Source: a virus | Taxonomy: Duplodnaviria; Caudoviricetes | Virus record (IMG/VR): IMGVR_UViG_3300048597_000294 | Coordinates: 1-61,851 of that record | Reading direction: 5' to 3' (one strand) | DNA length: 61,851 nt | In this document: in pieces, positions 1,565 to 37,338 of the stretch | How the letters are laid out: every line of letters begins with the position of its first letter | How positions within the stretch are numbered: position 1 is the stretch's first letter | Notes under the pieces: model-generated | Seen by the model: only the letters and a program-made list of their open reading frames with translations | Database searches by the model: none | Told to the model about the DNA's origin: nothing | Position numbers and translations under genes: made by a program

Positions 1565-2005
1565 ATGGACAGATTGCTCGCGTTCGTTCTCGCACTCGTG
1601 GCTGTGGCCGCGTCGTCGTGCACTGCGTTCAACCCTCAGGCGCGTCTAGCTGCCGTTGACCCTGCGGAAATCGCGTCGGCGCCGATCGGAGACGAGCCTA
1701 ATCTGGAGTCGTTCAAGCAACAGATCGAGGAGCAGGTTCGCTTGCGGCTCCGCGATCCCGACTCCGCCAGGTTTCGCTGGACCAAGAAGTTCTGGCGTGA
1801 GCCCTACATCTACAGTCCCACGGACACGGTGCGCATCGGCTGGCGCACCGACTTCTTCGTCAACTCCAAGAACGGGTTCGGTGGGTACGGCGGAGAGCTG
1901 CGCTGGGCGGCAGTCGTCGTAGATGGAACCCTGATCGCGATCGGCGTCCCTCCCGACTATGGTGGCCGCCCCAACGGTGAGCCCTACTTCGGGCCGCTGA
2001 AGTAG
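1565..2005 (+). CDS. Lipoprotein (moron-type)
   Basis: AAGGAG RBS, signal peptide with lipobox-like AASSC, LRDPDSARF and VNSKNGFGGYGG motifs common in phage/bacterial lipoproteins. Confidence 0.8.
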   Translation: MDRLLAFVLALVAVAASSCTAFNPQARLAAVDPAEIASAPIGDEPNLESFKQQIEEQVRLRLRDPDSARFRWTKKFWREPYIYSPTDTVRIGWRTDFFVNSKNGFGGYGGELRWAAVVVDGTLIAIGVPPDYGGRPNGEPYFGPLK

Positions 2006-2018
2006 AAGTCCGCGCTCC

Positions 2019-2058
2019 GTCCTACAACGGCCACTGACCGCGCGCGCCGCGGCAGACT
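2019..2058 (+). promoter_or_regulatory. Putative late promoter (GTCCTACAACG box plus -10 CAGACT)
   Basis: Same box and spacing recur at 18243, 51165 and 53634. Confidence 0.6.
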
Positions 2059-2091
2059 CCCGTCTCCATCCCGTCACCAGGAGACCAGGAC

Positions 2092-2517
2092 ATGGCCAAG
2101 GCTTCGCCGTTCAAGCGCAACCCGCGCATCGAGTACGTCCCCAAGTGCGACCGTGAGCTTCCGCCCGAGCAGCGGACCACGTTCCACCTCTCGCAATTCG
2201 ACCTCTTCGACGACCTCGCCGTCGCGTCCGAGGTGGCCGCATCGAGTGGCGCCGACGTCACCGAAGGCGTCGAGCAGGTCGTCAATGCCGTGCGACGCGT
2301 GAATCCGGCGACCTACATGCGCGCCGTGCTCGAGCACGGGCTGAAGGGCTGGGACAACTTCCAGATGCCCGACGGTAGCCCGGCCGTGTTCAAGTCGAAC
2401 CCCGACGGCACCGCGTCACTGGAGTCCCTGAACCTGCTGGGCTCGCTGGCGTCCGAGATCTTCGCGGAGATCCTCGAGGCGAACCGCGTGTCGCGCGAGC
2501 AGGTGGGAAAACCCTAG
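2092..2517 (+). CDS. Tail assembly chaperone (gpG-like)
   Basis: Immediately upstream of TMP; LKGWDNF motif; ends in slippery G GGA AAA. Confidence 0.8.
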   Translation: MAKASPFKRNPRIEYVPKCDRELPPEQRTTFHLSQFDLFDDLAVASEVAASSGADVTEGVEQVVNAVRRVNPATYMRAVLEHGLKGWDNFQMPDGSPAVFKSNPDGTASLESLNLLGSLASEIFAEILEANRVSREQVGKP

Positions 2518-2891
2518 CGGCGACGCACGCGGCCTACGGGCTCCAGAAGGCCCGATGCCCCGATTGCCGGCGGGACCCGCGTCGCCGTCTCGCCTGGGGC
2601 TGTGACAAGCCGGCCCCGCAGCCCGTGTGGACGGGCACCTGCCCCGCGTGCATGCGCGGGGATCTGTCGTGCCCCGAATGCCAGGGCCGCGGGGAGGTCG
2701 TGCACTTCCGTTGTCCCGCCAGCATGACCGATGCGGAGGGGCGCGCGGCCGTGCGCGGCTACGCCCACGCGTCCTACGGATCACCACCTGACGAGGGAGG
2801 TTGGGCACAACAGAACGCCATGGGCGCCGCGCTGATCGACGTGGTGGCCTTCGAGGTCGCGGTGATTCGCGACGCGGACTCCGAGGACTGA
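2505..2891 (+). CDS. -1 frameshift extension of tail chaperone (gpGT-like), Cys-rich
   Basis: G GGA AAA at 2505-2511; -1 frame is open to TGA 2891, 3 nt before the TMP ATG. Confidence 0.75.
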   Translation, partial: GKTLAATHAAYGLQKARCPDCRRDPRRRLAWGCDKPAPQPVWTGTCPACMRGDLSCPECQGRGEVVHFRCPASMTDAEGRAAVRGYAHASYGSPPDEGGWAQQNAMGAALIDVVAFEVAVIRDADSED

Positions 2892-2894
2892 CGC

Positions 2895-5800: not shown

Positions 5801-7598
5801 CGGCATCGTCAAGATCGAGCTGCTCGAGCCGAACAAGAAGGCCGAGTTCGACCGCGCGCTCGAGGTCGTGCGCCGCTTCGCCGCCTCGTTGAAGGAGGTG
5901 TCCGCGATCAAGGGCGACGTCTCCCTGTCGCTCAAGAACGTGAAGCTCGACGACGCGGACATCCGCCGCACGTTCGACGCGTTGCGCACGCGCATCGAGG
6001 CGTCCGTGGTACCCGTCGAGGTCAAGGCGCGTCTCACGCTCGAGGCGAACCAGGCTGAAGCCGACGCGCTCAAGGCCGCGGGCCTCGCGCGCGTGCAAGC
6101 CGAGGTCGAGAAGTGGCGCAACGTCACGCGCGAGATCGCCCAGCAACGCGTGCGCGTCACGCAGGCATCGATCCAGGCCGCGCGCGAGGTGCGCGAGATC
6201 CTCTCGGGGTTCGGCGCGGACATCAGCCGGCAAGCCGTGTCGGCGCAGGACTCGATCCGGCAGGCCGTGGCGAAGGCGTCCGACGACCTCGTCGCGTCGT
6301 TCCTGCGCGCGCCGAGCTTCAACCCGGGTCCGGTTCTCCGCGCGCTCGCCGAAGTGCAGGAGGCGGGTCGCCAGGCCATCGCGCGCGCCGGGCTCCAGTC
6401 GTTCCAGGACGACCTCATCGAACTGCGCTCGGCTCAGATCGGCCTCTTCGATCCGTTCAGCAACTCGCTCGCACAGGTGCAACTCGAGCTGGACCGCACG
6501 CGGGTCGGCATCGAGCGGATGCTGGAGGCGAGCCCGGAGAAGACCGACCTCGCGCAGCAACTCAAGGAGGCCGCGGAGAAGCGAGCGGACGCCGAGCGTG
6601 GCCGTATCGCGGTCGAGTTCGCGCTGCGACCCAAGATCGAGTTCGACCAACTGCTCGTGCAGGCGGAGATCGCGCGCAAGCTGAAGCCGGACATCGACGA
6701 ACTCGCCGAGGGTGTGCGCATTCTCCTGTCCGGTGATCCGTTGCCTGACGGCCTCGCCAAGCGCATCGACGAGCTGCGCGAGAAGGTGCGCGCGCTCCAA
6801 CGTCAGGCGGACGAGACGGCTGAGCGCTTCCGCTTGGGGTTCGGCGAAGGCCTCCAACAGGCCATCGACGACCTCAACAACAAGTACCGCCAGGGCTTCA
6901 CGCTCGCGCAGGACGCGGTCAGCGCGCTCACCGACAACTTCGCGGACTTCATCTACAAGCTCGGGCAGGGGAAGGCCTCGTTCAAGGACTTCGCCAACAG
7001 CGTGCTCCAGGACATCCAGCGCATCCTCTCGCGCAACCTCGCGGAGAACCTGCTGGGGAACCTCCTCGGCTTCTTCACGGGCGGCGCCAACGTCCTCGGT
7101 GGACTGGCCCCGGCATCTGCGTCCGCGGCGGTGGTGCCCGGTCTCGGATCCACGTTCTACGGAACCGGATTCGAGCGCGGCGGGGTGATGGCTGGCCAGA
7201 TGCTCTCGCCGCGCGGCATCGAGGCCTACGGCGCCTTCACCCGCTCGTTCGAGAAGGGCGGGATCATGCCGGGCGGGATGATGCCCGTTCGCGCGTACGC
7301 ATCCGGCGGCGTCGCGACGTCTCCGCAGATGGCGATCTTCGCCGAGCGCCCGGGCATGGCCGAGGCGTTCGTCCCGTTGCCCGGCGTGGGGCGCGGCATC
7401 CCGGTGGAGTTCCCCCGCGGCGCACCTGGCGGCGGCGGGAACACCGTGCACGTGTCCATCCACATGAGCGCGATCGACTCGCGCTCCGGTGCCGAGTTCC
7501 TCCAACAGCACGCGCGCGAGATCGGTGACCTCGTGCAGGGCCAGATCTCCAGCGGATCGAACAACCGCCTGCGCCGGAGCGTTGGGGGGCAGCGATGA
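2895..7598 (+). CDS. Tape measure protein
   Basis: 1567 aa, Ala-rich helical; TP901-like core; C-terminal YASGG..FAE..EAFVPL motif. Confidence 0.92.
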   Translation: MATAQTDLNIIARLVDEVSGPLAKLRANIQALGTAKVGDVGELAKLRVQSEDAAKAIEEIAVKAAPALAVVQQSAQRVEQELATITTAATTAAAAQAEADRLLADLEQTSVGRLQRERAEAAASVETIKARVDALKLEGAQVDKLKEAAARFQQDLTLRVDTRAAQEALELEARTEQIRTTVLSRERELARLRGQTANVAKLDAAIADQAARALDAAANRQIAALREQYRGRADLNALLDEATKKLREQVELDKRIVRATSSTATGRGANIQAAGAGLSQAAQGLSIFGANGAARIAQTGSALSSISTELSGIGAAATGAGIALGAAAAGVIAVGAASAGLVAAARSAASFDEEFSRLPGVIKLSREEAKELRAQIFDLSRTFDLDATATANAYFTAFAEGARNAAEATELVVAASKLEAAGLATQQQAIQAVSDAYDTFGASIGSATEVTAKLNATALAAGLPLQVVANNIGALGRSAKLINADFEETLGLFAQLKNDGAKPRQAVSEIDAAFRALADPSVRQALARNGVIISDYSIQSKGATSALREIGKVIGTNRDALAAVSPELARAQGAIRTVTGSAQKLAETTASIQVGKDIDLSRLQESFKVIEGAANSLKSVLVEVFGPIVLDSLATMIRSLRENEGLVRAVATAIAVAAVATKLWFDYLELVVEKLKFLNPAYYAGSLIQKLLPDGSKETIKGVAGAAGEAKTIFDQFTEAFNTAQRALSQPKTSPALKETVEKVRELREIAAIDINGLLRVGDLDQAQKRADELLATFNELRKTSILPSDIEQTQADVLVSAVKRSVANARSYLSGEIKQLITDGDFEKATAAAARFGKTLEGLIGRVTVDPEANRAFVEATELLNEAILAAGNPIVQIGTDISQVMAAAGKDVNSLSINVTRLQGVLGQTPASIFAQTDIQRELDRVFATLTKEVPPPLKIPLEIEPDQAVNDALATVRRLSQEATQDGIVKIELLEPNKKAEFDRALEVVRRFAASLKEVSAIKGDVSLSLKNVKLDDADIRRTFDALRTRIEASVVPVEVKARLTLEANQAEADALKAAGLARVQAEVEKWRNVTREIAQQRVRVTQASIQAAREVREILSGFGADISRQAVSAQDSIRQAVAKASDDLVASFLRAPSFNPGPVLRALAEVQEAGRQAIARAGLQSFQDDLIELRSAQIGLFDPFSNSLAQVQLELDRTRVGIERMLEASPEKTDLAQQLKEAAEKRADAERGRIAVEFALRPKIEFDQLLVQAEIARKLKPDIDELAEGVRILLSGDPLPDGLAKRIDELREKVRALQRQADETAERFRLGFGEGLQQAIDDLNNKYRQGFTLAQDAVSALTDNFADFIYKLGQGKASFKDFANSVLQDIQRILSRNLAENLLGNLLGFFTGGANVLGGLAPASASAAVVPGLGSTFYGTGFERGGVMAGQMLSPRGIEAYGAFTRSFEKGGIMPGGMMPVRAYASGGVATSPQMAIFAERPGMAEAFVPLPGVGRGIPVEFPRGAPGGGGNTVHVSIHMSAIDSRSGAEFLQQHAREIGDLVQGQISSGSNNRLRRSVGGQR

Positions 7599-10547: not shown

Positions 10548-11006
10548 ATGCCGCGCAAGGACGTGATCGAGGTGCCCTACCTGGACCTCGTGCACCTGCC
10601 GTACAAGCGTGGCGGCACGACCATGGAGGGCCTGGACTGCCGCGGCGTCACGCTGATCGTGCTGCAGCGCATGGGTCGCACGGTGCCGCCCGGGGCGTTC
10701 CCCGCGACGCTCGACCAGATGCTGTCCGACTGCGGGTCGATCGCCGCACGCGCCGACGTCGAGGAGGTCGTCGACCCGCGCGCGCCCTGGGCCAAGCACT
10801 GGAAGCGCGTGCGCCTGGCGTCGGCCAACGTGGGTGACGTGGCCTTCTGCTACGACGGCGAGGAGGCGCACGTCGCGCCGCTGCTGTCCAAGCCCAAGCA
10901 CGGGCGGCCGTCCTACGTTCTCAGCGCGACCCGGGAACATGGCGTAGTGGTGGTGCCCACCGCGAAGCTCAAGAACCTGATCGGGTTCTACGCGCTGGTC
11001 CCCTGA
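10548..11006 (+). CDS. NlpC/P60 tail assembly protein (gpK-like, no JAB domain)
   Basis: PYKRGG...GLDCRGV and AHVA catalytic Cys/His. Confidence 0.8.
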   Translation: MPRKDVIEVPYLDLVHLPYKRGGTTMEGLDCRGVTLIVLQRMGRTVPPGAFPATLDQMLSDCGSIAARADVEEVVDPRAPWAKHWKRVRLASANVGDVAFCYDGEEAHVAPLLSKPKHGRPSYVLSATREHGVVVVPTAKLKNLIGFYALVP

Positions 11007-14000
11007 TGATCTTCGTCCACGAAGTTCCGAACCCGTTCGAACCGACCTGTCGCACCACCGTGGTCGATCGAACGGCAGCGTCCGTCGCCGACCTCGTGCC
11101 GGCGAAGTGGCGCCAGACCCGCAGCGTCGCGCCGTACGTGAACGGGCGGGCCGCGAGGATGGACACGGCGGTCGGCGATGGGGATCACGTGACGTTCACG
11201 CTGCAGCCGCACGGAGCCGAGGCCGTGTTGCTGTTCTCGAAGGCCTTCGTCTACCTGTTCCTCGCCGTGGCGCTGAACTCGTTCCGGCCCAAGCTGCGCG
11301 CGGCGTCCGACCGCAACGAGGATCGATCGCAGCACTACGGCTTCGACGGCATCCAGTCGACGCGCACCGAGGGGCTGCCCGTTCCTCGGATCTACGGCCG
11401 CTTCCGATCAGGCGGCCAGATCGTCAACGAGTTCGTCGAGAGCAAGGGCTCTCTCGGGAGCTGGTACAACGTCATCATCGACTTCGGGTGGGGGCCGTAT
11501 CAGTCGATCGCGGGCATCACGACGAACACGCACCCGTCGAGCCCCCGTCGCACGCGTGCATCCAGCGCCAACGGCATCCCGGCCGGGCTGTTCATCAACG
11601 ACACGCCCGCGTCCCAGTTCGACGACGTCGAGCTGCACACGCGCCTGGGCACCAACGAGCAGGACTGGATCCCCGGCTTCGATCGCGACACGTTCACCAT
11701 CCCGATCCAGCGGGACCTGTCGGCGCCCGAGGGGACGACGACCAGCTTCGATCCGTTCATCTCGACGACCGCGCCGAGCACGGGCGAGGACTCGCTGTGG
11801 ACCACGTACGCCGAGGAGTACGACGTCACCGATCGGGAGATCGACGCGTTCACGATCAAGACGCGGTTCCCCGCCGGCCTGTACTCGATCAACACGTCCT
11901 CGAACTCGATCAACACCATGCCCTTCGCGCTGGCGGTGCGTTACCGCGAGCTCGACGGGTCCAACCTGCCGATCACGACGGGGGGCCTCGACGGGGACGG
12001 ATGGGTGCGCCCGCTGCCGACGCGCGTGCTGTACGCGGCCGAGCAGAGCGACATGCGGGTCGACTACACGTTCCCGACCTACGACCCGCAGACGTGGACG
12101 CGGCCGACGCTGAACGGACTCCTGCGCTGCTCGCCGGTCGATGGGGGCATTGTCTCCGCTGTCACCGGCTACCTGACCCGCTCGGCCGCCAACGTCGCAT
12201 CCGATGGCGTGCCCTCGGGATGGAGCGAGGCCAACGGCATCCGCGAGCTGACCGTCATGGGCTGGGTCGCGTTGCGTGCGAACGGCACGTTCCACGGCTA
12301 CAGCGCGGACGCGAACCAGGACCGACTGCAGACGGCGGCGCCGGTGTTCGCGTGGCTCAACGAGTCGACCCTGCGCGGCTTCGAGCTGCTGTTCCAGACG
12401 AAGACCTTCACCCTTTCGCCCGGCCAGACGCGCACGCGCATCACGCCGATCGCGCGCGTCGGGGACGGTGGAACGGTGCGGGAGTTCTATCCGCGCAACC
12501 CCGGCGGCGGCGCCGGCTCGACAGCGCAAGAGATCGGGGACGTCCCGATCCTCATCGGCCTGTCGCAGTTCGACAACCTCTCGACCGCGGGCTTCTACCA
12601 CGTCGGCTTCACCTACAAGCAGGATGTCGACGGCACGAACGATCGCCTGCGCATCTTCATCAACGGTGAGGTCGTGTTCGAGCTCGTGGGCCCGCTGACG
12701 ATCCGCCCGCCGCAAGTCGCGTCGCCCGCGGCGGTCTTCGTCGCGACCGACGGCCGCAACACGGGTGGCGAGGCGTTCACGCTGCGAGGCTGGCTGGCCG
12801 AGGTGTCGGTGCAGCCGACCGAGCTGAGCCAGGCCGAGATGGCGCGGCGCTACAACAACGGCGCGGGCCTGTACGAGCCGAACGACGCGTCCTCCTTCGC
12901 GACGTTCCACTTCGAGGAGAACTACCCCTCGGGCGTGCAGGGCAACGGCCAGACGATCCTGAACAGCGGCGCCGTGCTGGGCAGCCTCACGAGCATCTTC
13001 AACGGCGGCACCGCCTCGCACTTCTCCAGCGGCGTCCAGAAGGGCTTCATCGACCGCGAGGTCGCGACCAACACGCCCAAGCGCGCGAAGTACCGGATCC
13101 AGGTCATGCGCGCGACGCGCAACTACACCGGCTCCAACGGCTCGGACGACTGCCAGTGGGAAGCGCTCCTCACGCACGTGGAGCAGAAGTACCGCGCGCC
13201 CGGCCGCGTGCGCATGGGCCTGCGCGTGAAGGCCCAGGAGCAGCTCGCGGGCTCGCCGCCGAAGATCTCGGCTGTCATCGAGGGGGCACTCGTGCGCGTC
13301 TGGGACGGCGTCGACGCGAACGAGCCGTACATGCCGCTGGTCTTCTCGCGCAACCCGGCGTGGGTGGCCTACGACGTGTGCACGCACCCGCGCGGCGGGA
13401 TGGGCGCGCACGTGAGTCCGAAGGACCCCGACCTGGTGTCGCTGAAGGAGTGGGCGGACCGGAACGACGAGTGGGTCTACGACCTGCGGGGGAACCTCCT
13501 CGAGGTGGACGACTCGGACACGGCCAAGGCGATCAGCGACATCGGCTACACGAGCCTCGGCGGCCTGGTCAGCTCGTTCTTCGTGATCCTGCGCTCGGCC
13601 TACATCGGGAACATCCCCGACAACTACAAGGTCGGCGCGTTCGTTGGCTTCTCCGGCATCCCCACGCCCGACGACTCGGCGCAGATCCTGCTGGACATCA
13701 ACGAGGACAGCGTCGGTGGGTGGGAGATCGTGTCCGTCGACAACGGCTTGGTGAGCGGCACGCCACGCATCTATCTGCGCTACGACACGTTGACCTTGCC
13801 GGCGCTGCCGTGGACGCCCTCCGGCTCGCTCGTGTCCTCGGCATCGCCGCTTGCGATCACCGGCACGATGCGCGGGGTCGAGCGCCGCCACCGCTACGAC
13901 GGAGCCTTCGACGAGGCCGAGGGTGGGTGGGATGCGCTCATCTCGTTGTGCGACACGGCCGGGGCGGTGCCGCTGCGGAGCGGCCGGAAGATCTTCTTTC

Positions 14001-16054
14001 GCGTCGACGCGCCGCGGCTCCCCACGGACATGATCACGCCCGCGAACATCCTGCGCGACTCGTTCGAGTACGAGTTCACGGGCCCGGACGACAAGCCGAA
14101 CGCGTTGGACATCGAGATCCTCGACGAGGAGGCCAACTTCGAGCGCGCGACGGTCTCCGACGAGCACCCGAGCATCACGGGCAGCGTGTCACTCTCGGAG
14201 ATCCGGCGCAGCAGCGTCCGCCTCAAGGGCGTCACGCGGCGCAGCCAGGCGAAGCGCTGGGCGCGCGAGGCGCTGAACCAGAACTACCTCATCCGGCGAG
14301 CGGGCAAGCACGTCGCGAGCGCGGACGCGTTGCCGCACCGTCCCGGCGACGTGTTGCAGATCGCGCACGACATCATCCCGCGCGGCAATGGCGGGCGCGT
14401 CCTCGACGGCTCGACGTCATCCTCGATCCTGCTCGATCGCCCGATCACGCTCGCGGCCGCGACGACCTACAAGCTCGCCGTGCGCAGCGCGACCGCGGGC
14501 GTCGCTGCCGCGTTCGAGACGCGAACGGTGACGAACAGCGCGGGGACGTACGAAGGCCTCGAGGGCGAGGCGATCACGGTCTCCTCGGCGTTCTCCTTCA
14601 CGCCCGCCGCCGAGGACGTGTTCATCCTCTGCCAAGTGGGCAAGGAGCTGCGCGTCACCCTGCGCTCGATCGGTCTGACGCGCGACCTGCGGCGGGAGGA
14701 GACCTGGGTCGAAGCGCCCGAGGGGATCCACATCGAGGACGGCTCGGAGATCGACGACCTGCCCGCGTCGACGCTGTCGAGTTCCTCGAGCGCGATCACG
14801 TTCGGCGCTTCCTCGGACACGGGCCAGCTCCCCGACAACGTCGACATGCTGCCGCCCGCTGAGCGCGTGCTGCGGGACAACGCGGGCTCGTTCACGACCG
14901 GCGTGCAGCTCTCGTGGGTCGCCCCGACCTCGCGCGCCATCAGCGAGCAGATCGTGTGGGCGTCGCGCGAGCGTGGACCGTGGCGCGAGGTTGCGCGCGT
15001 GGGGCCGTCGGTCGCGACCACGTTCGTTCCGGTTCCGCGTGTGGAGCCTGGCGCGTCGCTGTCGTTCGCGATCCAGCCTGTGACGCGCAGCGGCGCGCGC
15101 CGCGAACCGGCCGACTGCGGCCCGCGCAGCCTGCGCCTCGTGGGCGTGGGGCCCGCCCCCTCCGCGCCGACGGGCTTGGCCGCGTCGATCGTCAGCGAGC
15201 GGGTCGTGTACTCGTGGGACGCGGTCTCCGACGACATCACCGCGATCGAGCTGCGCCGAGGTGGCTGGATCCTGGGCCAGCCCATCGCCACGGTGCCGCG
15301 CGGCTCCAACAGCTTCGGCCCGACCTCCGACTTCGTCTCCGTCCCCGCCGGCGAACCGGGCGCCCTCGTGGTCATGCGCACGCGCAACGGCGCCGGCGCG
15401 CTCTCTCCTCCCGTTGCGATCCGATTCGCCCCCTCGATCCTCGACTCGACGACGCTCGAAGACCTGGACGCGAGCGTGCTCGCGAGCCAGGAGTGGTCCG
15501 AGTTCGGCGACGGCTGGGTCGACGACTCGTTCCCCACGCAGAACGGAACCCTTCTCGACATGATCCGGCGCGACGACGGCGCGATCGAGTTCGACGGGTC
15601 CTCGCTGACCGGTTCGTACACGGCCGCGGCGCCGGACCTCGAGGTGGGTGGGCAGGCCGAGGCCCTGTACCTGTCGGCGACGGTCGAGGCGTACCAGGTG
15701 CACCCCATGACCTGGGACCAGGCTACGTGGACCTGGGCGGATCCCGCCGCGCAGCAGTTGTCGTGGGAGGGCCCGGTCAACGAGATCGGAGACGGCGCCG
15801 ACGAGCGCTGCACGCTGGCGATCGAGGTCCGCTTCCGCAACCGCGCGCGCGACTGGTCGGCGTGGACGCCATTCAAGCCGGGGCGCACGGTCGCGCTGGG
15901 GGTGCAGTTCCGCCTCGTCGCGACGCGACCTTCCGCGTCCTACCAAATCCGGGTGACCCGCTTCGCGACGGTATTGGTGCGCGAGCCCACGACGAAGTTC
16001 GATCGGGACGAGACCACCGTGTACCTCGAGAGGATGATCCATGGCAGCCGGTAG
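11006..16054 (+). CDS. Central tail tip protein, gpI (ubiquitin-like)-gpJ fusion with LamG-like insertion and FN3
   Basis: N-terminal VNG...VGDGDHV beta-grasp; PVPRIYG, SRNPAW, PGDV..I gpJ motifs; GFYHVGFTY..LRIFINGE LamG motif; PSAPTGL FN3. Confidence 0.88.
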   Translation: MIFVHEVPNPFEPTCRTTVVDRTAASVADLVPAKWRQTRSVAPYVNGRAARMDTAVGDGDHVTFTLQPHGAEAVLLFSKAFVYLFLAVALNSFRPKLRAASDRNEDRSQHYGFDGIQSTRTEGLPVPRIYGRFRSGGQIVNEFVESKGSLGSWYNVIIDFGWGPYQSIAGITTNTHPSSPRRTRASSANGIPAGLFINDTPASQFDDVELHTRLGTNEQDWIPGFDRDTFTIPIQRDLSAPEGTTTSFDPFISTTAPSTGEDSLWTTYAEEYDVTDREIDAFTIKTRFPAGLYSINTSSNSINTMPFALAVRYRELDGSNLPITTGGLDGDGWVRPLPTRVLYAAEQSDMRVDYTFPTYDPQTWTRPTLNGLLRCSPVDGGIVSAVTGYLTRSAANVASDGVPSGWSEANGIRELTVMGWVALRANGTFHGYSADANQDRLQTAAPVFAWLNESTLRGFELLFQTKTFTLSPGQTRTRITPIARVGDGGTVREFYPRNPGGGAGSTAQEIGDVPILIGLSQFDNLSTAGFYHVGFTYKQDVDGTNDRLRIFINGEVVFELVGPLTIRPPQVASPAAVFVATDGRNTGGEAFTLRGWLAEVSVQPTELSQAEMARRYNNGAGLYEPNDASSFATFHFEENYPSGVQGNGQTILNSGAVLGSLTSIFNGGTASHFSSGVQKGFIDREVATNTPKRAKYRIQVMRATRNYTGSNGSDDCQWEALLTHVEQKYRAPGRVRMGLRVKAQEQLAGSPPKISAVIEGALVRVWDGVDANEPYMPLVFSRNPAWVAYDVCTHPRGGMGAHVSPKDPDLVSLKEWADRNDEWVYDLRGNLLEVDDSDTAKAISDIGYTSLGGLVSSFFVILRSAYIGNIPDNYKVGAFVGFSGIPTPDDSAQILLDINEDSVGGWEIVSVDNGLVSGTPRIYLRYDTLTLPALPWTPSGSLVSSASPLAITGTMRGVERRHRYDGAFDEAEGGWDALISLCDTAGAVPLRSGRKIFFRVDAPRLPTDMITPANILRDSFEYEFTGPDDKPNALDIEILDEEANFERATVSDEHPSITGSVSLSEIRRSSVRLKGVTRRSQAKRWAREALNQNYLIRRAGKHVASADALPHRPGDVLQIAHDIIPRGNGGRVLDGSTSSSILLDRPITLAAATTYKLAVRSATAGVAAAFETRTVTNSAGTYEGLEGEAITVSSAFSFTPAAEDVFILCQVGKELRVTLRSIGLTRDLRREETWVEAPEGIHIEDGSEIDDLPASTLSSSSSAITFGASSDTGQLPDNVDMLPPAERVLRDNAGSFTTGVQLSWVAPTSRAISEQIVWASRERGPWREVARVGPSVATTFVPVPRVEPGASLSFAIQPVTRSGARREPADCGPRSLRLVGVGPAPSAPTGLAASIVSERVVYSWDAVSDDITAIELRRGGWILGQPIATVPRGSNSFGPTSDFVSVPAGEPGALVVMRTRNGAGALSPPVAIRFAPSILDSTTLEDLDASVLASQEWSEFGDGWVDDSFPTQNGTLLDMIRRDDGAIEFDGSSLTGSYTAAAPDLEVGGQAEALYLSATVEAYQVHPMTWDQATWTWADPAAQQLSWEGPVNEIGDGADERCTLAIEVRFRNRARDWSAWTPFKPGRTVALGVQFRLVATRPSASYQIRVTRFATVLVREPTTKFDRDETTVYLERMIHGSR

Positions 16055-24082: not shown

Positions 24083-24215
24083 GATCCGGGCCTGCGGGAT
24101 CGTTCGAGAGAGGCCCCACTTCGCGAGCGGTGGCGGTCTCCGGGAAGCTCGACCGGTCCACTCTCCCTCCGCGGGCCGCCCTGCCACTCGATGTGGTGCG
24201 GGCGGCCCGCTCCTT

Positions 24216-24476
24216 TCACACGCTCAGCACGAGCCACACGGCCTGGCTCGCGGCGTCGCGCACGGCGGTGTCCAGCTTCCAGTAGCGGCGCTGCGCGGCG
24301 CGCAACTGGCCAGCCTGCAGGAGCTCGGCGACGGCCATGAGGTCCGCCACGTCCTTGGCGATCTGCGCGCGGAACTCGGGATCGGAGTCCCGGCGGAACG
24401 GAGCCGCGTAGGCGCGCGCGTCGCGCCGCAGTTGCGCGGCGAGCTGGCGGTTGGTGGGTTCGGTCGACTTCGTCAT
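24216..24476 (-). CDS. Hypothetical protein
   Basis: ATG 24476 with GAAGGG RBS; helical 86 aa. Confidence 0.55.
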   Translation of the reverse strand: MTKSTEPTNRQLAAQLRRDARAYAAPFRRDSDPEFRAQIAKDVADLMAVAELLQAGQLRAAQRRYWKLDTAVRDAASQAVWLVLSV

Positions 24477-24605
24477 TGGGTGCCCTTCTACGCGGCCGTG
24501 GGCCACGTGGCGGGACACACGCGCGGGGCGGGGGAATGCCTCGGCGAATCCGGGGATTCCGGCGCGCGGCCGGACACCCTCACGTGCGAGTCGAGTCGGG
24601 AACCC

Positions 24606-24634
24606 TTGCCCAGGTCTGCGCCGCCAAGTACCCT
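24606..24634 (+). promoter_or_regulatory. Sigma70-like promoter for tRNA pair
   Basis: TTGCCC-17 nt-TACCCT, 17 nt upstream of the first tRNA. Confidence 0.65.
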
Positions 24635-24651
24635 CCCGACACAAAGCGGTT

Positions 24652-24727
24652 GCCGGGGTGGAGCAGTTGGCAGCTCGTCAGGCTCATAACCTGAAGGTCG
24701 TCGGTTCGAGTCCGACCCCCGCCACCA
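24652..24727 (+). tRNA. tRNA-Met(CAT), initiator-like body, atypical acceptor stem
   Basis: GAGC/GCTC D-stem (A11-U24), TCAGG-CTCATAA-CCTGA, GTCGG-TTCGAGT-CCGAC, ACCA end; G1-C72 paired, C2:C71 mismatch. Confidence 0.9.
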
Positions 24728-24736
24728 ACCGCGATC

Positions 24737-24809
24737 GCTGGGGTAGCTCAACGGTAGAGCGTCGCGCCGACGTGCGATGATCCAGGTTCGACTCCTGGCC
24801 CTTGCTCCA
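24737..24809 (+). tRNA. tRNA-like gene (Gly-like body, U73-CCA) with aberrant 6-nt anticodon loop
   Basis: TAGCTCAACGGTAGAGC D-arm, TCGCG-CCGACG-TGCGA, CCAGG-TTCGACT-CCTGG, TCCA end; U3:U70 mismatch. Confidence 0.75.
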
Positions 24810-24810
24810 A

Positions 24811-25584
24811 TCACGTTCGCGGATGCATCGCCATGTAGGCGCCGACCACGAACGCCTCGACGCTCGCCACGTCGGGCTTGCCGAGCGCGTGCGAGTCGCG
24901 CAACGCGAGCAAGCGCGTCTCCAGTTGCTCCGCATCCTTCAGGCACTCCTCCATCGAGTACTTGCCCGTGCGCACGTCGAGGATGTGCTGGCGTTGCGGT
25001 TCAGGCATGGGAAACGTCAAGCGGCCGGTCTCCGCGAGTTCGATCCCTTGGTACCCGAGGCGCAGCATGTGACCGGCGTACTTCGTGTCGAAGCCGTACT
25101 TCTCGACGAGTTCGGGACGCGGCGCTCCGTGCCCGCTCCGGTTGTGCATGTGAGTCCGCTGTTGGCGCATGTAGCCCAGGTGGGGCGCGAAGATGTTCTC
25201 GCCGATGAAGCAGGGCGCGAGCGCGCGCAGGGCCTTGGCGATGTCCGTGTCGATCAGCATCGCGTGCTCCGGGATGAAGAGGAGCTGGAGGATCGTCGGG
25301 TTCCCGTCGAGCGCGAGGCGCGCCCACTTGGCGAGGCTGTACGTCACGCGGTCGAGATCGCCGGGGCCGGAACGTTCGCCGTCCGGCTTCGTGCGCTCGA
25401 TGTGCTGCTCGAAGCGCCCGCGCAGGCCGAAGAAGTGGGTCCAGGGCTCGATGCAGATGCCCATCTCGTCCCGATCCGCGACGTCCGAGACGGACAGGCC
25501 GTAGAGCGTGGAGCCCACGACCGCGCGCATGATCGTCTCTCGCGTGGTGGGCCGGTACGAGGTCGGTTGTTCGGAGATCTTCAC
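24811..25584 (-). CDS. RlaP/YcgL-like Pol-beta family nucleotidyltransferase
   Basis: VVGSTLYGLS...ADRDEMG (GS..D.D), GNPTILQLLF, GFDTKYAGHMLRL; GTG overlaps upstream stop. Confidence 0.85.
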   Translation of the reverse strand: MKISEQPTSYRPTTRETIMRAVVGSTLYGLSVSDVADRDEMGICIEPWTHFFGLRGRFEQHIERTKPDGERSGPGDLDRVTYSLAKWARLALDGNPTILQLLFIPEHAMLIDTDIAKALRALAPCFIGENIFAPHLGYMRQQRTHMHNRSGHGAPRPELVEKYGFDTKYAGHMLRLGYQGIELAETGRLTFPMPEPQRQHILDVRTGKYSMEECLKDAEQLETRLLALRDSHALGKPDVASVEAFVVGAYMAMHPRT

Positions 25585-26351
25585 GCGCGCGGCTCTCGCC
25601 CGATGAACATCCCCGGCACGAGGCCCCGCGCGATCTGGTCGCGGAACACAGGGTCGAGCGACGCCATGCACTCTCGGATGATCGTCGACCATTCGACTTT
25701 CAGGTCGTACTCCATGTCGCGCCCGATGCTCTTGTACCACTGAACCGTAGACCCGCTCGGCTTGTGCAAGAACGTCGGCCGCGAGAACGCGTACCAGTCG
25801 CACGCCGTGGTGTGCGTGTACTTCGAATCGCCCTCCTCGTCGAAGGACTGGGGGACGGGCCCGTTGCGCGCGACCCACTCAGCCTCCTTGCCGCAGGAAC
25901 AGGACGGAGCCGGGTTGACCTTCAACCACGCATCGCGTTCGGCGTTGGTGGTGGGCGTGCTGTGCCAACTGCCCTCGGAGAAGATACGCATCATCTCCTC
26001 CGTGGGGGTCTCCTCCCGCCCTTCGGGCTTCGGAATCGACTTGCCCTTCACCATGCCGACACATTGGAACGCTCTGCTCCACGCGTCGAACTTGGTCACA
26101 GTGTCACAGTTGGCGTCGTGGATGGGTAGTCCGCCGCCGCAGTCGCAGCGAGGCATCCATCGATACCAGTGCATCTCGAACGTGTCGTTCTCGAAGTCGC
26201 ATCCGTAGCCGAACTCGCCGGCAAACCCGAAGTGCGAGGCGTCGGCGAGTCCGAGCTTGTGGATCTTCTCGGTGAGCCTGCGGAGATCCCGGTTGGCGTC
26301 TGAGCCGTCGTGGCCTGGGAGAACGATGTGGATCTGGCTGTGCTCGCTCAT
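25581..26351 (-). CDS. Hypothetical protein with several Cys/His pairs
   Basis: FENDTFEMH..CDC...WYKSIGRDM; translationally coupled. Confidence 0.7.
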   Translation of the reverse strand: MSEHSQIHIVLPGHDGSDANRDLRRLTEKIHKLGLADASHFGFAGEFGYGCDFENDTFEMHWYRWMPRCDCGGGLPIHDANCDTVTKFDAWSRAFQCVGMVKGKSIPKPEGREETPTEEMMRIFSEGSWHSTPTTNAERDAWLKVNPAPSCSCGKEAEWVARNGPVPQSFDEEGDSKYTHTTACDWYAFSRPTFLHKPSGSTVQWYKSIGRDMEYDLKVEWSTIIRECMASLDPVFRDQIARGLVPGMFIGREPRA

Positions 26352-26773
26352 CGCGGCGGCTCCTGAACTCGTTCGGACCACCACTCGCCGCCCATGTCCT
26401 TGAGCTCCTCGGGGTAGTGCGTGTCGTACTCGTAGACGGCCGGGACCCCGATGTGGCTGTCGATCACCACGAGGACGCACGATGCCTCGGCGAGGCTGTC
26501 GCGACGCCAGAAGTAGTGACCCGTCACCGTGGGCGGCGTGGTCGACCAGCGGGGAGGGGACGCGAGGCGGTCGAGCGTGGCCTGGAGAGCGCGCGCGTAG
26601 CGGTCGTGCTCCTCCTGCGAGGGGAACGTGATCGCGAGGCTCAGGTTCGGCGGGACCTTCAGCGGGACGGTGACGATGCCGCTCGATGCGAGGACGGGCT
26701 GCGACGGCGCGAGGCCCGGCGCCGTCTCCTTCACGTAGTGGATCGACTGGGTTCGGTCGCTTCGATCTTCCAT
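26348..26773 (-). CDS. Hypothetical protein
   Basis: GGAGG upstream; WSTTPPTVTGHYFWR motif common in small phage proteins. Confidence 0.6.
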   Translation of the reverse strand: MEDRSDRTQSIHYVKETAPGLAPSQPVLASSGIVTVPLKVPPNLSLAITFPSQEEHDRYARALQATLDRLASPPRWSTTPPTVTGHYFWRRDSLAEASCVLVVIDSHIGVPAVYEYDTHYPEELKDMGGEWWSERVQEPPR

Positions 26774-26783
26774 GCCCCGGATC

Positions 26784-27482
26784 CTACCCAGCCTCCGCCG
26801 CGCTCGCACCTGAGACGAGGTTGGCGCGGCGCTGGGCTTCCACGGCCTCTTCGATGGTCGCGAAGGTCCCCAGCTCCAGACGCTGGCCGTTCACGCACGC
26901 GCGCACGCGCCAGCGCTGCTTCGTGCTGTTCCAGTGGATGTTGCGGATGCCGCTCCGTGCCGGCGGGCGGATGCGAGGCGGCGGCGGCTTCGCGTGGCCC
27001 TTCGGCGACTTGGGGCGCACGGGCGTCGTGAACGTCCGCTCGGCGTCCCATCCCAGCTCTTCCATGCGGTGCTTCGCAGTGTCCGCCCTGATCCCGAACT
27101 CGTCGCAGAGTTCGACGAAGAGCCGGCGCGCGCCTCGGAACTCGATCCACTTGGAGCTGCGCCGGTTGCGGCAGTTCGTCTTGCGCAGCACCCAGCGGCA
27201 GTTCCCGGGCTCGTAGCCGCGGTCGTTGTCGATGCGGTCGAGCTCGTGCTTCCTCGACGGCTTCGGCCCCATGTCGGCCACGAACGCGGCGACGTCGTCG
27301 CGCCAGCGGTCGCACACGGAGATCCCGCGACCGCCGTAGTCCTTCCACGCGGGGTTCGTGGGGACGGTGCAGCGCAGGCGCATCGTCTGCCACGCGCGGT
27401 ACTCGGGCCGATAGCTCAAGCCGTGCTTGCGGGTGATCCGCCCCTTCCTGGGGCTCGGGAAGGGCAGCTCAGCGGTTCGCAT
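26784..27482 (-). CDS. HNH homing endonuclease with C-terminal AP2-like domain
   Basis: YGGRGISVCDRW, LDRIDNDRGYEPGNCRW, SGIRNIHW..WRVR..LGTFAT.EEA. Confidence 0.92.
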   Translation of the reverse strand: MRTAELPFPSPRKGRITRKHGLSYRPEYRAWQTMRLRCTVPTNPAWKDYGGRGISVCDRWRDDVAAFVADMGPKPSRKHELDRIDNDRGYEPGNCRWVLRKTNCRNRRSSKWIEFRGARRLFVELCDEFGIRADTAKHRMEELGWDAERTFTTPVRPKSPKGHAKPPPPRIRPPARSGIRNIHWNSTKQRWRVRACVNGQRLELGTFATIEEAVEAQRRANLVSGASAAEAG

Positions 27483-34211: not shown

Positions 34212-35204
34212 TCACTTCCGCTTCGTGGTCTTGGGGGACTTGGGTGCGCTGAATCGGAGGTCGCGGTACTTCGTCGCGCCGACGGAATAGGCGTCCTTCT
34301 CGATGGTCTTGAGGCTGTATGTGCCTCGTCCGTTCGGCAGGACGCCGAACGTGTTCTTGCCGATCGCGTCCTTGAGCAGCGTTCGCACGCGCTGGTACTC
34401 GGCCTCGGTGTTCGACTTGAGCGCGGCCAGCTCTCGTTCGCGCTCGGCGAGCGCGGCAACCTCGTCGGACAGGACGATCGACTGGCCGTTGTCGTCGGGG
34501 TGGAGGATCTTCAGCGTCTTCGCGCTGCTCTCGGATCCGTCTGCCGGCGGTGCGTCGTTCTCCTGAACGCGCCGCCAGAACTCACGCTCGAGCTGCACGA
34601 GCGGATCGATCGGAGCCGCTGCGCGTTCGACGCGCGGGGAGATGAACAGCTTGTTCCCGCCGACGAGGCCCGCGACCAGGGCGCTCGGGATCGACGTGGC
34701 GACCGCGAGTTGGTGCGACACCTGGAGCAGGTGGTGCTCGGGGAACTTGCCGTCCTCCCACTCGTCGCGGTGCCACTCGCCCGTGGTCTTCGCCTCGATC
34801 GCGACGAGCTCACCATTGCCCGCGACCGCGATCCCGTCGAGTGTTGCGCTCATCCACGGGTGGATGCGGCTGCGCAGGAAGAGCTGGCGCCCCTCGACGA
34901 CACCGACGATGTCGAAATCGTCGTGGCCGCGCAGCCTCGTGATGGCCGGGCCCACGTCGAGTAGGTCGAGGCCCTCGCGCCGGCACGTCTCCTTGACGAT
35001 CGCGGGCTCGTGCACGTTGCCCCAGAAGATGTGCTCGACGTCCGACAGGTCGGGCGCCTCGACGAGCCCGGTCTTGTACGACCACAGCTCGATCGCGGAC
35101 TGGTAGGGGGATTCTCCGCAGGCGGCGGCGGCCTCGCTCGCGCCGAGCGTCTCGCGTCGGAGGGCGAGCCACTCGTCGCGGCTGAGTTCGCGGATGGTCG
35201 TCAC
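34212..35204 (-). CDS. YqaJ-like viral recombinase exonuclease
   Basis: EWLALRRETLGASE..SPYQS..LW; ATLDG; IEAKT; QVSHQL. Confidence 0.92.
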   Translation of the reverse strand: MTTIRELSRDEWLALRRETLGASEAAAACGESPYQSAIELWSYKTGLVEAPDLSDVEHIFWGNVHEPAIVKETCRREGLDLLDVGPAITRLRGHDDFDIVGVVEGRQLFLRSRIHPWMSATLDGIAVAGNGELVAIEAKTTGEWHRDEWEDGKFPEHHLLQVSHQLAVATSIPSALVAGLVGGNKLFISPRVERAAAPIDPLVQLEREFWRRVQENDAPPADGSESSAKTLKILHPDDNGQSIVLSDEVAALAERERELAALKSNTEAEYQRVRTLLKDAIGKNTFGVLPNGRGTYSLKTIEKDAYSVGATKYRDLRFSAPKSPKTTKRK

Positions 35205-35521
35205 TCCTCGCACTCCTGCAGGCAGTCGCAAGGGACGCCCTCGTGGTTGCGGTGTCCGCAGTGGCCACCATGTTCTTCGTGGCCACACGCGCACAGGATC
35301 GTTGCGCCAGCCTGGAGCGCGTTCCCGATGCAAGAGGCCGGGATGCGGAAGCCGCAGATCACACAGTAGGCGTCGGGCTGGCCACCGAAGCCATCGGCGC
35401 GCCTGGCGTACACGTGGCGGTGCGGGCGCCGGGCTTCCGCAATGCGGGCCCGTGAGCCCAGTTCTTGCGCACGACCTGCGGGGTCGACGTCTTCGAGGGG
35501 ATGCGTGTCGTTTTGGACCAT
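35201..35521 (-). CDS. Cys/His-rich small protein, first gene of leftward operon
   Basis: CVIC, CACGH, HCGH, CDC. Confidence 0.6.
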   Translation of the reverse strand: MVQNDTHPLEDVDPAGRAQELGSRARIAEARRPHRHVYARRADGFGGQPDAYCVICGFRIPASCIGNALQAGATILCACGHEEHGGHCGHRNHEGVPCDCLQECEE

Positions 35522-35688
35522 GGCGTAGGCGCGTCCTTGGCGCGCGATTCGTTACCAACGTTTCTACGCCAACATATCACGATCGTTCAACACCGATCCG
35601 GATAATCCGCTAGGCTGTTGCCAAATGGCCACGCATTCGTCACTTATGGCGCCCGTCGCGACCCGCCCCCGCGACGGAGAACCCGCCA
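35522..35688. promoter_or_regulatory. Divergent control region (immunity switch)
   Basis: AT-richer intergenic between leftward early operon and XRE repressor. Confidence 0.6.
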
Positions 35689-35967
35689 ATGCCTGGGAAG
35701 AAGAAGACCGGATCCGCCTCGAAGGCCCCCGTCGTGCCGAAGTTCGGCCTCGACGGGGCTCGCGTGTTCGAGCGGCGGAAACACCTGAAGCTGTCGCAGA
35801 TGGATCTGGCCATGCGCCTCAACGCGCACGGCTGGAAGGCGACGCCGCAGGTGATCTCCCGTGTGGAGAACGGTCACAAGGACTTGGTCTCGGGGTGTGT
35901 CGCGGCCTACGCGCGCGCCCTGGAATGCTCCTCGGACTTCTTACTGCGGCTCAACGAGAAGCCCTGA
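35689..35967 (+). CDS. XRE-family repressor (no peptidase domain)
   Basis: RRKHLKLSQMDLA...ISRVENG...ARALECSSDFLL. Confidence 0.88.
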   Translation: MPGKKKTGSASKAPVVPKFGLDGARVFERRKHLKLSQMDLAMRLNAHGWKATPQVISRVENGHKDLVSGCVAAYARALECSSDFLLRLNEKP

Positions 35968-36052
35968 AACCAAGTCTATCCCGCCGGTTAGATCCGCCCG
36001 CGACGCCGCGCTCCCCACACGGCGTTGTTATCTACACCTGGGAGTTGCTCGC

Positions 36053-37225
36053 ATGAACGGTCGAGGGCCGGGGCGCGGAACGCTGCGTCCCGTGATAGAT
36101 GCTATGGGCCTGCGTGTGTGGCAGGCGGACTGGCGCGGCGCGGACGGGCGCAGACATCGCAGGGTCCTGGGAGCGAACCGACGCGATGCGGAGCGGGCCC
36201 TGGCCAAGCTCATCGCGGAACGCGATTCTGAGCTCAACGGCGTGGCGCGGGTCTCCGGGCTCGACCTTCCGATCGCGGAAATCGTCGACCACTACCTCGA
36301 GCACCTGCGCGCGACCGCACGAAAGCAGACCGCCCACGACGCCGAGGTCGCTCTCCGCAGGATTGTCCGGGATGCACCCCTCCGGTTCGTCCGTGACGTC
36401 TCGAAAGCGCGCATCATGGCCTGGCGAGGCCGGCGGGTGCACGGCGGGATCAGCCACAAGACCGCGAACACAGAGGTCGCGACTCTCCAGGCGGCCCTCA
36501 ACCACGCGATCAAGTACGACCGAATCGCCTCGAACCCGCTGCTCGGGCTGGAGACGCTCCCCACGACCGAGCCGTACCGCAAGCGCATCGCACGCGCGCT
36601 GACGGACGCGGAGGCGGTCAAGATCGTCTACGCCGCATCCGTCTACGACAGCACGCACTCGGGCCTGCCGCGAACGCCGATGCTCCGGACGCTCATCGAG
36701 ACGGGGGCCCGCTGGAACGAAGTCCGCTCCGCCACGTGGGGCGACCTGGACTTCGATGTCGGCCAGATCCGGTACCGGGCGGTAACCACGAAGACGAAAC
36801 ACGAGCGAATCGTGCCGATCATGCCGTCCTTGCTCGACCTGTTGGCGGACCTGCGCCAACAGCAGACGATCCGGATGGGGGTCGAGCCGCGGCAGGAGGA
36901 TGCCATCTTCTTGACACCGGAGGGCAAGAACTGGCCCAGGAACGGCGCGCGCTTCCGGGAGTGGCTGGCGAAGATCCTGGTGCGCGCCGGGGTCCGCAAG
37001 GTGGACGTTTACGGCAAGGTTCTGCACATCCACGCCATGCGGCACACGTTCACGACCCGGATGATTTTGGGCGGAGTCCCGATCCCCATCGTGGCCGCGA
37101 TGACCGGCCACAGGTGCTACCAGACGTTGTGGGGGACCTACGTCCATCTCGCGACGGCCGACGCGAGGAAAGCGATGAAGGCCTTGCCTCCGTTGCCGTA
37201 CGACGGCAATGTTCCTCCTGTCTAG
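36053..37225 (+). CDS. int: Tyrosine integrase
   Basis: TGARWNE, TTKT, HAMRHTF, TGH, Y catalytic residues. Confidence 0.95.
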   Translation: MNGRGPGRGTLRPVIDAMGLRVWQADWRGADGRRHRRVLGANRRDAERALAKLIAERDSELNGVARVSGLDLPIAEIVDHYLEHLRATARKQTAHDAEVALRRIVRDAPLRFVRDVSKARIMAWRGRRVHGGISHKTANTEVATLQAALNHAIKYDRIASNPLLGLETLPTTEPYRKRIARALTDAEAVKIVYAASVYDSTHSGLPRTPMLRTLIETGARWNEVRSATWGDLDFDVGQIRYRAVTTKTKHERIVPIMPSLLDLLADLRQQQTIRMGVEPRQEDAIFLTPEGKNWPRNGARFREWLAKILVRAGVRKVDVYGKVLHIHAMRHTFTTRMILGGVPIPIVAAMTGHRCYQTLWGTYVHLATADARKAMKALPPLPYDGNVPPV

Positions 37226-37305: not shown

Positions 37306-37338
37306 TGGTGGGCGATACTGGACTCGAACCAGTGACCC
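37306..37338 (-). other. attP core: 3' end of a host tRNA (Val-like)
   Basis: Minus strand GGGTCACTGGTTCGAGTCCAGTATCGCCCACCA (T-arm, acceptor, CCA) with no 5' half, 80 nt after int. Confidence 0.85.

Follow-up and report, generated by a model that had tools for sequence, protein, structure and literature searches.

A putative RNA-repair nucleotidyltransferase of the RlaP family packed against an initiator-type tRNA and an aberrant tRNA-shaped RNA in a temperate phage genome

The DNA considered here (further referred to as the window) is the entire virus record IMGVR_UViG_3300048597_000294, 61,851 bp long with a G+C content of 68%. Between two minus-strand units, an operon and the gene of an 86-aa protein, it carries a small plus-strand island of two tRNA-shaped RNA genes, RNA 1 and RNA 2, the second of which meets, tail to tail, the gene of a nucleotidyltransferase (NTase) of the RlaP family, the last gene of that operon (Table 1). 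The initial annotation had proposed a module of tRNA decoys (or NTase substrates) and a repair enzyme directed against host defence, and the anatomy that it described was confirmed. ARAGORN, run on the whole window, called exactly two genes, a tRNA-Met(CAT) and a second tRNA-like gene, scoring 62.7 and 50.1 bits with the Rfam tRNA model; the D and T arms and the CCA ends are kept, and the acceptor stems have mismatches at 2:71 (C/C) in RNA 1 and at 3:70 (U/U) in RNA 2. The NTase does belong to an RNA-repair family (PF10127, E 9e-25), and its TGA stop (the complement of 24811-24813) is separated from the CCA end of RNA 2 at 24809 by the single base 24810. The promoter said to drive the two RNAs did not hold up: the candidate site matches the sigma-70 hexamers at 4/6 and 3/6 positions, and a consensus scan of 24100-25700 returned neither promoter-like nor terminator-like sites.

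Initiator tRNAs, in which the top of the acceptor stem is normally unpaired, are distinguished by a CAU anticodon, an A11:U24 pair, an unpaired 1:72 position and three G-C pairs in a row (29-31:39-41). RNA 1, which matches the Rfam tRNA model with E 9.8e-13 (gathering score 29) and has standard D and T arms, shares with the bacterial initiator tRNA (tRNA-fMet) the anticodon, A11:U24 and two of the three G-C pairs (G30-C40 and G31-C39), and differs from it in the paired G1-C72, the mismatched C2/C71 and A29-U41 in place of the third G-C pair. These features lead us to regard RNA 1 as derived from an initiator tRNA-Met and its acceptor mismatch as the initiator hallmark shifted by one pair, from 1:72 to 2:71; being merely such a shift, the mismatch is no sign of a decoy. 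The suggestion that neither RNA is an ordinary translation supplement is thereby divided: it stands for RNA 2, which should be non-decoding (see below), and is weakened for RNA 1.

RNA 1 was matched at E <= 1e-8 in 127 genomes out of a sample of 151 from the class to which the metagenome-assembled genome (MAG) G001 belongs. The alignments listed have identities of 80-91% (81-88% where most of the tRNA is covered), and every listed alignment to a cellular initiator begins at position 3 or beyond. Four distinct initiators from genomes of this class have U1/U72, i.e., an unpaired 1:72. Compared with these four, RNA 1 is changed on both sides of two pairs, from U/U to G-C at 1:72 and from G-C to A-U at 29:41, and such two-sided changes look like selection, not decay. 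The arrangement with the mismatch at 2:71 appears to be unusual. From 117 viral-contig loci, 110 initiator-like tRNAs were retrieved, representing 83 distinct sequences, none of which starts with G-C-C as RNA 1 does, and G-C or C-G at position 1:72 occurs in none of the 55 of them that have an encoded CCA (the 3'-end register of the other 28 is unreliable). RNA 1 is probably a functional initiator-type tRNA-Met.

As for RNA 2, the full Rfam tRNA model is matched (E 3e-9, the same gathering score) with the anticodon loop skipped. The seven-pair acceptor stem includes the U3/U70 mismatch and a G4-U69 wobble; it is accompanied by standard D and T arms, a 4-nt variable loop, a U discriminator and the 3' CCA, and what is missing is the 7-nt anticodon loop with U33. 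In the Rfam/ARAGORN register, the anticodon stem of five pairs bears a 6-nt loop (CCGACG) in which position 33 is C, and the anticodon given by ARAGORN consists of two bases. According to the minimum free energy fold and the pair probabilities, the C and G at the loop ends pair with each other (probability 0.989), leaving a CGAC tetraloop. Since the 6-nt loop lacks U33 and is predicted to be closed as a tetraloop, RNA 2 should be unable to present an anticodon and to decode. No blastn match to RNA 2 was found in 50,697 phage records, no match to a degenerate pattern in the viral contigs, and no match in the MAG holding the closest named NTase homologue; 8 of the 81 genomes of the class of this MAG gave weak partial matches only. 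In the best of the latter, the first 28 nt are 90% identical to tRNA-Thr(UGU) and positions 7-73 are 73% identical to tRNA-Gly(GCC); in other words, the 5' third resembles the former, and the latter is the nearest tRNA overall. RNA 2 would be a tRNA with one base of the anticodon loop lost, now dead or serving as a tRNA mimic that does not decode. A near-match (one mismatch) in the RNA 2 hairpin to GNCGAAN0-1G, the 5' motif of the Y-RNA-like (YrlA) RNAs, was rejected as too short and too GC-biased.

The NTase matches PF10127 over residues 16-205 (88.2 bits, cut-off 23) and phrog_388 'nucleotidyltransferase' with E 7.2e-52; an alternative start is the ATG at 25530. Its G24-S25 and D37-x-D39 are invariant in an alignment of 29 homologues, and we take these G-S and D-x-D residues to be the catalytic ones of the Pol-beta superfamily. 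PDB sequences, NCBIfam and PADLOC gave no match. The family match and the motif provide us grounds to assign the protein to the RlaP-family RNA-repair nucleotidyltransferases, with the catalytic motif intact. The family is common in phages, being present in 683 of the 50,697 phage records, among them those from phages of Mycobacterium (341), Klebsiella (105), Gordonia (49) and Escherichia (49).

Two Pseudomonas enzymes, PfRlaP and PaRlaP, have been described in a preprint as adding 1-2 nucleoside monophosphates to the 3'-OH of RNA, as preferring the 5' half of cleaved tRNA and as needed for the restored charging of base-deprived tRNA; the same preprint counts T4 NrdC.11 among the RlaP family and places the Pseudomonas enzymes in another sequence cluster than NrdC.11 (bioRxiv 10.64898/2025.12.29.696909). 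Phage RlaP was predicted by Iyer and co-workers to restore lost nucleotides before ligation, alongside RNA ligases (PMC7824862). The NTase of the window resembles the RlaP proteins of P. fluorescens, P. aeruginosa and T4 in its Pfam match and its G-S...D-x-D motif and is phage-borne as NrdC.11 is; its homologues of 43-50% identity sit in RtcB or Hen1 repair operons. It differs from these systems in that the adjoining RNA ligase gene, to which the family owes its name, is missing. The phage genome has no genes for RtcB, Ro60 (TROVE) or Band-7, and no RNA ligase, kinase or phosphatase families were found among 45 of its open reading frames (ORFs) scanned against Pfam. Resealing would thus need a ligase of the host, as none was found in the phage. 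By analogy with the Pseudomonas homologues of the preprint, the NTase may act in a similar way.

In total, 240 loci with NTase homologues were collected. At the first 160 of them, none of the nine neighbouring window genes has a homologue, and no close relatives of the phage were found by way of the NTase (in genomes and viral contigs), the 256-aa protein encoded next to it or the ParB-methylase (both in viral contigs). At the nearest homologue locus (L081, 63% identity), the NTase lies among phage-family genes with no tRNA, and at the next one (L001, 57%) there is a tRNA-Pro 1.2 kb downstream on the NTase strand; a tRNA pair similar to RNA 1 and RNA 2 is missing at both. ARAGORN found a tRNA within 200 nt of the NTase at 26 of the 240 loci and within 2.5 kb at 44. 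After clustering of the NTases at 70% identity, tRNAs lie within 500 nt in 4 of the 71 clusters and within 2.5 kb in 13; a single cluster contributes 26 of its 29 loci. Neighbouring tRNAs share the strand of the NTase in 122 of 127 cases, the convergent arrangement of the window being an exception.

Among 80 viral contigs with the NTase, 36 have a tRNA over the Rfam cut-off and 44 do not. In the former, distances are close to those expected from random placement: a tRNA lies no farther than 1.5 kb from the NTase in 3 cases vs 3.83 expected (P 0.76), within 3 kb in 7 vs 6.26 and within 5.5 kb in 12 vs 9.77. For three phages, Bongo, Confidence and WXIN, the annotation shows no tRNA at a distance of up to 3-4 kb from the RlaP gene. 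In phages, the NTase and tRNAs are not positionally linked; this lack of conserved linkage is as plain an observation as the identity and anatomy of the three parts, and it runs counter to the linkage in relatives that the initial annotation had expected. Absence of linkage had been named there as an outcome that would speak against the module; it largely holds for phages, but more distant cellular homologues sit among genes of tRNAs and tRNA-like Y RNAs, and at the level of the family the functional tie to tRNA-shaped RNAs is real. As to aberrant anticodon loops, they were found in 1 of 111 tRNAs far from the NTase (an 8-nt-loop tRNA-like RNA in the distal clusters of 11 viral contigs) and, with the window left out, at 1 of the 7 viral loci with a proximal tRNA (virus G139), which is not a significant difference. 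In the 137.5-kb virus G042, a tRNA with the CUA anticodon (L041 1650-1722, 71.6 bits) is located 780 nt upstream of RlaP and is a candidate amber suppressor.

The cellular picture is provided by the more distant homologues. When five loci (L104, L143, L156, L184 and L219) are pooled, none of them being shown with every element, the composite order is tRNA-Trp, YrlA-like RNA, Ro60, tRNA-Leu(CAG), RlaP, tRNA-Arg(UCG), tRNA-Cys(GCA) and RtcB. Ro60 (TROVE and vWA_Ro60, E ~1e-60) is present in L104, L143, L184 and L219, and RtcB (E ~1e-62) in L104, L156, L184 and L219; the YrlA-like RNAs reach 41-42.5 bits where the gathering score is 69, and none is listed for L184. Sub-threshold YrlA matches (35-42 bits) occur in 6 of the 11 loci scanned, beside Ro60, RtcB or Hen1. 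The five loci and their relatives come from soil metagenomes and Gaiellales-type MAGs; the order of NTase and tRNAs varies among them, with adjacency kept, and arrays of ~16-21 tRNAs lie upstream in L131 and L192. On the chromosome of an Ilumatobacteraceae MAG (L117), Ro60 and a YrlA-like RNA are divergent from RlaP, which is followed by Hen1 (PF12623, E 4.5e-110), and this locus would couple a Y-RNA module to the Pnkp/Hen1 repair system. In the provirus L012, RlaP is found together with a well-folded YrlA-like RNA, tRNA-Arg(UCU) and a split Ro60.

The virus G139, complete with 118 kb and terminal repeats, has in its locus (L395, G139:C1:62500-68500, positions 1648-5210) a tRNA-like RNA, a full-length YrlA-like match (40.9 bits), a tRNA-like RNA that ends in CCA, has a 6-nt anticodon loop and is mismatched at 3:70, a 488-aa VWA protein, possibly a divergent Ro60, and RlaP; its ordinary tRNAs are ~50 kb away. 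In some lineages, the RlaP family is truly tied to tRNAs or tRNA mimics. Such mimics in RNA-repair loci are already in print (PMC4201824; 10.1101/312249), and the YrlA of M. smegmatis is reported to be cut by RNase P and to receive a CCA (PMC4201824). RNA 2 is similar to the tRNA-like domain of the bacterial and phage YrlA Y RNAs (RF02553) and to b7a-tRNA in being tRNA-shaped, non-decoding (as predicted) and adjacent to an RNA-repair gene. Unlike the YrlA domain, which is permuted and sits on a Ro60-binding stem, it stands free as a cloverleaf with ends of its own, the window stays under the RF02553 gathering score, and the phage genome has no TROVE domain; unlike the predicted b7a-tRNA of RtcB systems, it is accompanied by neither Band_7 nor RtcB in that genome.

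The explanation that we favour, and to which we give about an even chance, is that the NTase and the tRNA cassette are neighbouring but separate phage cargoes sharing the theme of tRNA maintenance. The RlaP NTase would add nucleotides to cut tRNA, and a ligase, supplied by the host and not by the phage, would then reseal tRNA that lost bases. RNA 1 would supply initiator tRNA during infection. Tightly packed, the two cargoes would be transcribed separately, both would help translation to survive tRNA-directed host defences, and their tail-to-tail contact would reflect chance in how the genome is packed rather than a dedicated module. What we infer is the activity of the enzyme, from the preprint on the Pseudomonas homologues, as well as what RNA 1 does and the role of both cargoes in counter-defence. 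Phage tRNAs have been described as a counter to tRNA-cleaving host defences (PMC10264068, eLife 2023; PMC11555353, Nat Commun 2024). RNA 1 is like those tRNAs in differing from the host versions at positions recognised by proteins; it is unlike them in being of the initiator type and changed at the acceptor top and at 29:41. The published cases reportedly concern elongator tRNAs with changes in the anticodon loop.

Several observations weigh against separate cargoes. The homologues of 43-50% identity belong to Ro60/YrlA-like/RtcB or Hen1 operons in which tRNA genes are only tens of bases away, i.e., linkage of the RlaP family to tRNA-shaped RNAs can be under selection. In G139, the 6-nt-loop RNA is found beside the YrlA-like RNA ~2 kb upstream of RlaP. 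The D, T and anticodon stems of RNA 2 are perfect and its CCA is retained, an orderliness beyond what random decay would leave. Finally, direct adjacency of the NTase and a tRNA should arise by chance in only a few per cent of cases in a 62-kb genome (an estimate, not a computed value, made before allowing for the post hoc choice of the locus). A dedicated module, which we consider doubtful, would make RNA 2 a free-standing tRNA mimic operating with RlaP, as a decoy for toxins that read the tRNA body or acceptor end or as a cofactor or scaffold of the YrlA or b7a-tRNA kind, and RNA 1 a toxin-resistant initiator. Besides the family-level association with tRNAs and YrlA-like RNAs, seen in those 6 of 11 loci, and the published mimics (PMC4201824; 10.1101/312249), the second CCA-ended, 3:70-mismatched RNA near RlaP in G139 and the intact tertiary-contact nucleotides, stems and CCA of RNA 2 argue for it. 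It has to cope with convergent parts that are not co-transcribed, whereas tRNAs elsewhere nearly always lie on the NTase strand, with a phage devoid of Ro60, RtcB and Band-7, with an RNA 2 that has no relatives in the collections searched, and with odd loops that occur far from the NTase as well, the single proximal case not being convincing; moreover, deletion of one loop base is the simplest route to kill a tRNA. A bolder version, which seems to us quite improbable, would unite RNA 2 and the G139 RNA in a class of free-standing, CCA-ended mimics with closed 6-nt loops deployed together with RlaP. They would serve as bait for host toxins that read the body or the 3' end of tRNA, or minimally stand in for a Y RNA or b7a-tRNA, bringing the repair enzyme or the host ligase to damaged tRNA, and RNA 1 would be an initiator escaping an initiator-specific nuclease, against which the top of its acceptor stem would have been reshaped.

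The opposite possibility, pure coincidence, is in our opinion unlikely. In this case RNA 1 would be a translation supplement, RNA 2 a decaying pseudogene, and the NTase would be unrelated to tRNA defence, acting, e.g., in general RNA 3'-end repair. The lack of conserved NTase-tRNA linkage, the loop deletion of RNA 2 together with its acceptor-stem U/U and G-U, and the 44 of 80 NTase-bearing viral contigs that have no tRNA over the Rfam cut-off are consistent with it. On the other hand, an initiator tRNA brings no benefit in codon usage, the characterised RlaP enzymes prefer cleaved tRNA, as the preprint on them reports, and the changes in RNA 1 are ordered, not random. That RNA 1 and RNA 2 form one YrlA-like transcript is hardly probable at all. 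Rfam does report a YrlA match at 24693-24763 (30.6 bits; E 3.9e-4 in 2 kb and 0.012 in the whole window); the score is far below the gathering score, and only model positions 24-84 match, which are covered by a T arm (from RNA 1) and a D arm (from RNA 2). Tandem tRNAs are an artefact known to the YrlA authors, by whom such matches were discarded (PMC4201824), an ordinary tRNA cluster (L396) gives a similar match of 24.6 bits, and the phage genome has no Ro60 gene. Equally remote is tRNA-dependent lysogeny, in which the RNA genes would make up for a host tRNA gene that prophage integration had destroyed. The phage is temperate and has an integrase, and the phenomenon has been described (PMC10865867), but the tRNA fragment next to the integrase gene has the usual design of an attachment site that rebuilds the host gene, and it matches neither RNA.

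With regard to the genome as a whole, scans against PHROGs and Pfam revealed the gene layout of a temperate siphovirus-like phage, including two DNA methylases. Its structural module wraps round the record ends, and therefore the record is not an excised provirus. A myxobacterial host is hinted at by the named homologues nearest to the NTase, which come from a Nannocystaceae MAG (64% identity) and from a 'Deltaproteobacteria' MAG (63%). About 80 nt downstream of the integrase gene, a fragment reads as the 3' portion of a tRNA, with T arm, acceptor strand and CCA; it is similar to neither RNA 1 nor RNA 2 and is probably the core of the phage attachment site attP; the phage is likely to integrate into a host tRNA gene and to rebuild that gene. 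The 524-aa sulfatase-family protein, whose gene follows those of the tail fibres, may be associated with the tail and act on sulfated surface polysaccharide. In the recombination region, a 508-aa protein with an N-terminal AAA/ABC-type P-loop has weak JetC and PtuA-like PADLOC matches (E 1e-7 to 7e-4) and could be an SMC/Rad50-like recombination ATPase.

The position of the NTase as the last gene of its operon follows from the start/stop overlaps chaining the genes of the 256-aa and 153-aa proteins behind that of the HNH endonuclease; the stop of the 256-aa gene overlaps the NTase start (GTGA). The family of the 256-aa protein has 367 relatives at E <= 0.001, with conserved N- and C-terminal blocks and a variable middle part. 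The protein has no Pfam, NCBIfam or PADLOC match and is encoded at none of the 160 NTase homologue loci. Its structural model reaches a predicted local distance difference test (pLDDT) score of 33.7 from the single sequence and 76.0 with 52 relatives, and no solved fold matches it (best Foldseek E 2.2 against the PDB; best Z 3.1 in a wide VIA-align search). The 153-aa and 86-aa proteins have no match in Pfam, PHROGs, NCBIfam or PADLOC. The C-terminus of the HNH endonuclease has a weak AP2-like match (PF00847, E 0.0012, 19.5 bits), under the 33.3-bit cut-off.

As to sequencing reads, exact phage fragments occur at low depth in one aquatic run, and two exact 150-nt pieces of the NTase gene were found in a wastewater run labelled RNA-Seq, possibly DNA; the read depth over the phage tRNAs derives from initiator tRNAs of other organisms.

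Table 1. Features of the window, ordered by position.
Feature	Coordinates	Strand	Basis and remarks
Tape measure	2895-7598		PHROGs/Pfam
J-like tail protein	11006-16054		PHROGs/Pfam
Sulfatase-family protein, 524 aa	20811-22385	+	PF00884, E 7e-25
Protein of 86 aa	24216-24476	-	Divergent from the tRNA cassette, on its other side
Candidate weak promoter	24606-24611 (TTGCCC), 24629-24634 (TACCCT)	+	Putative; 17-nt spacer
RNA 1, tRNA-Met(CAT)	24652-24727	+	ARAGORN; 76 nt including encoded CCA
RNA 2, 'tRNA-??? (ga)'	24737-24809	+	ARAGORN; 73 nt including encoded CCA
RlaP (PF10127) Pol-beta nucleotidyltransferase, 257 aa	24811-25584	-	Pfam and PHROGs
Cys-rich 256-aa protein, function not assigned	25581-26351	-	phrog_13421, E 2e-14; context, not a shown partner
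153-aa protein	26348-26809	-	Upstream in the NTase operon; G+C at third codon positions of the ORF 0.90; overlaps the 256-aa gene
HNH endonuclease	26784-27482	-	phrog_3377, E 3.6e-48; first gene of the minus-strand block
P-loop protein, 508 aa	31612-33138	-	PADLOC (weak)
RecE/YqaJ-like exonuclease	34212-35558		PHROGs/Pfam
Integrase	35861-37225		PHROGs/Pfam
tRNA 3' part, probable attP core	37306-37338	-	
Terminase	48999-50735		PHROGs/Pfam
Portal	51211-53754		PHROGs/Pfam
Major head protein	54825-56039		PHROGs/Pfam

In general, the enzyme of this locus and its tRNA-Met appear to be of known kinds, the latter as an unusual member, and RNA 2 would be a relic or a putative mimic. If the ordinary reading holds, we are dealing with another phage that has an RlaP repair enzyme and an initiator tRNA of its own. 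For annotation, it means that phrog_388 'nucleotidyltransferase' corresponds to RlaP and that the labels 'tRNA nucleotidyltransferase' and 'NrdC' in some phage records may be imprecise. The mismatch of RNA 1 at 2:71 bears on how the acceptor end is read by the formylase, EF-Tu and initiator-specific nucleases. Should RNA 2 prove stable in cells, it would represent a new tRNA mimic of the free-standing type with a link to RNA repair.

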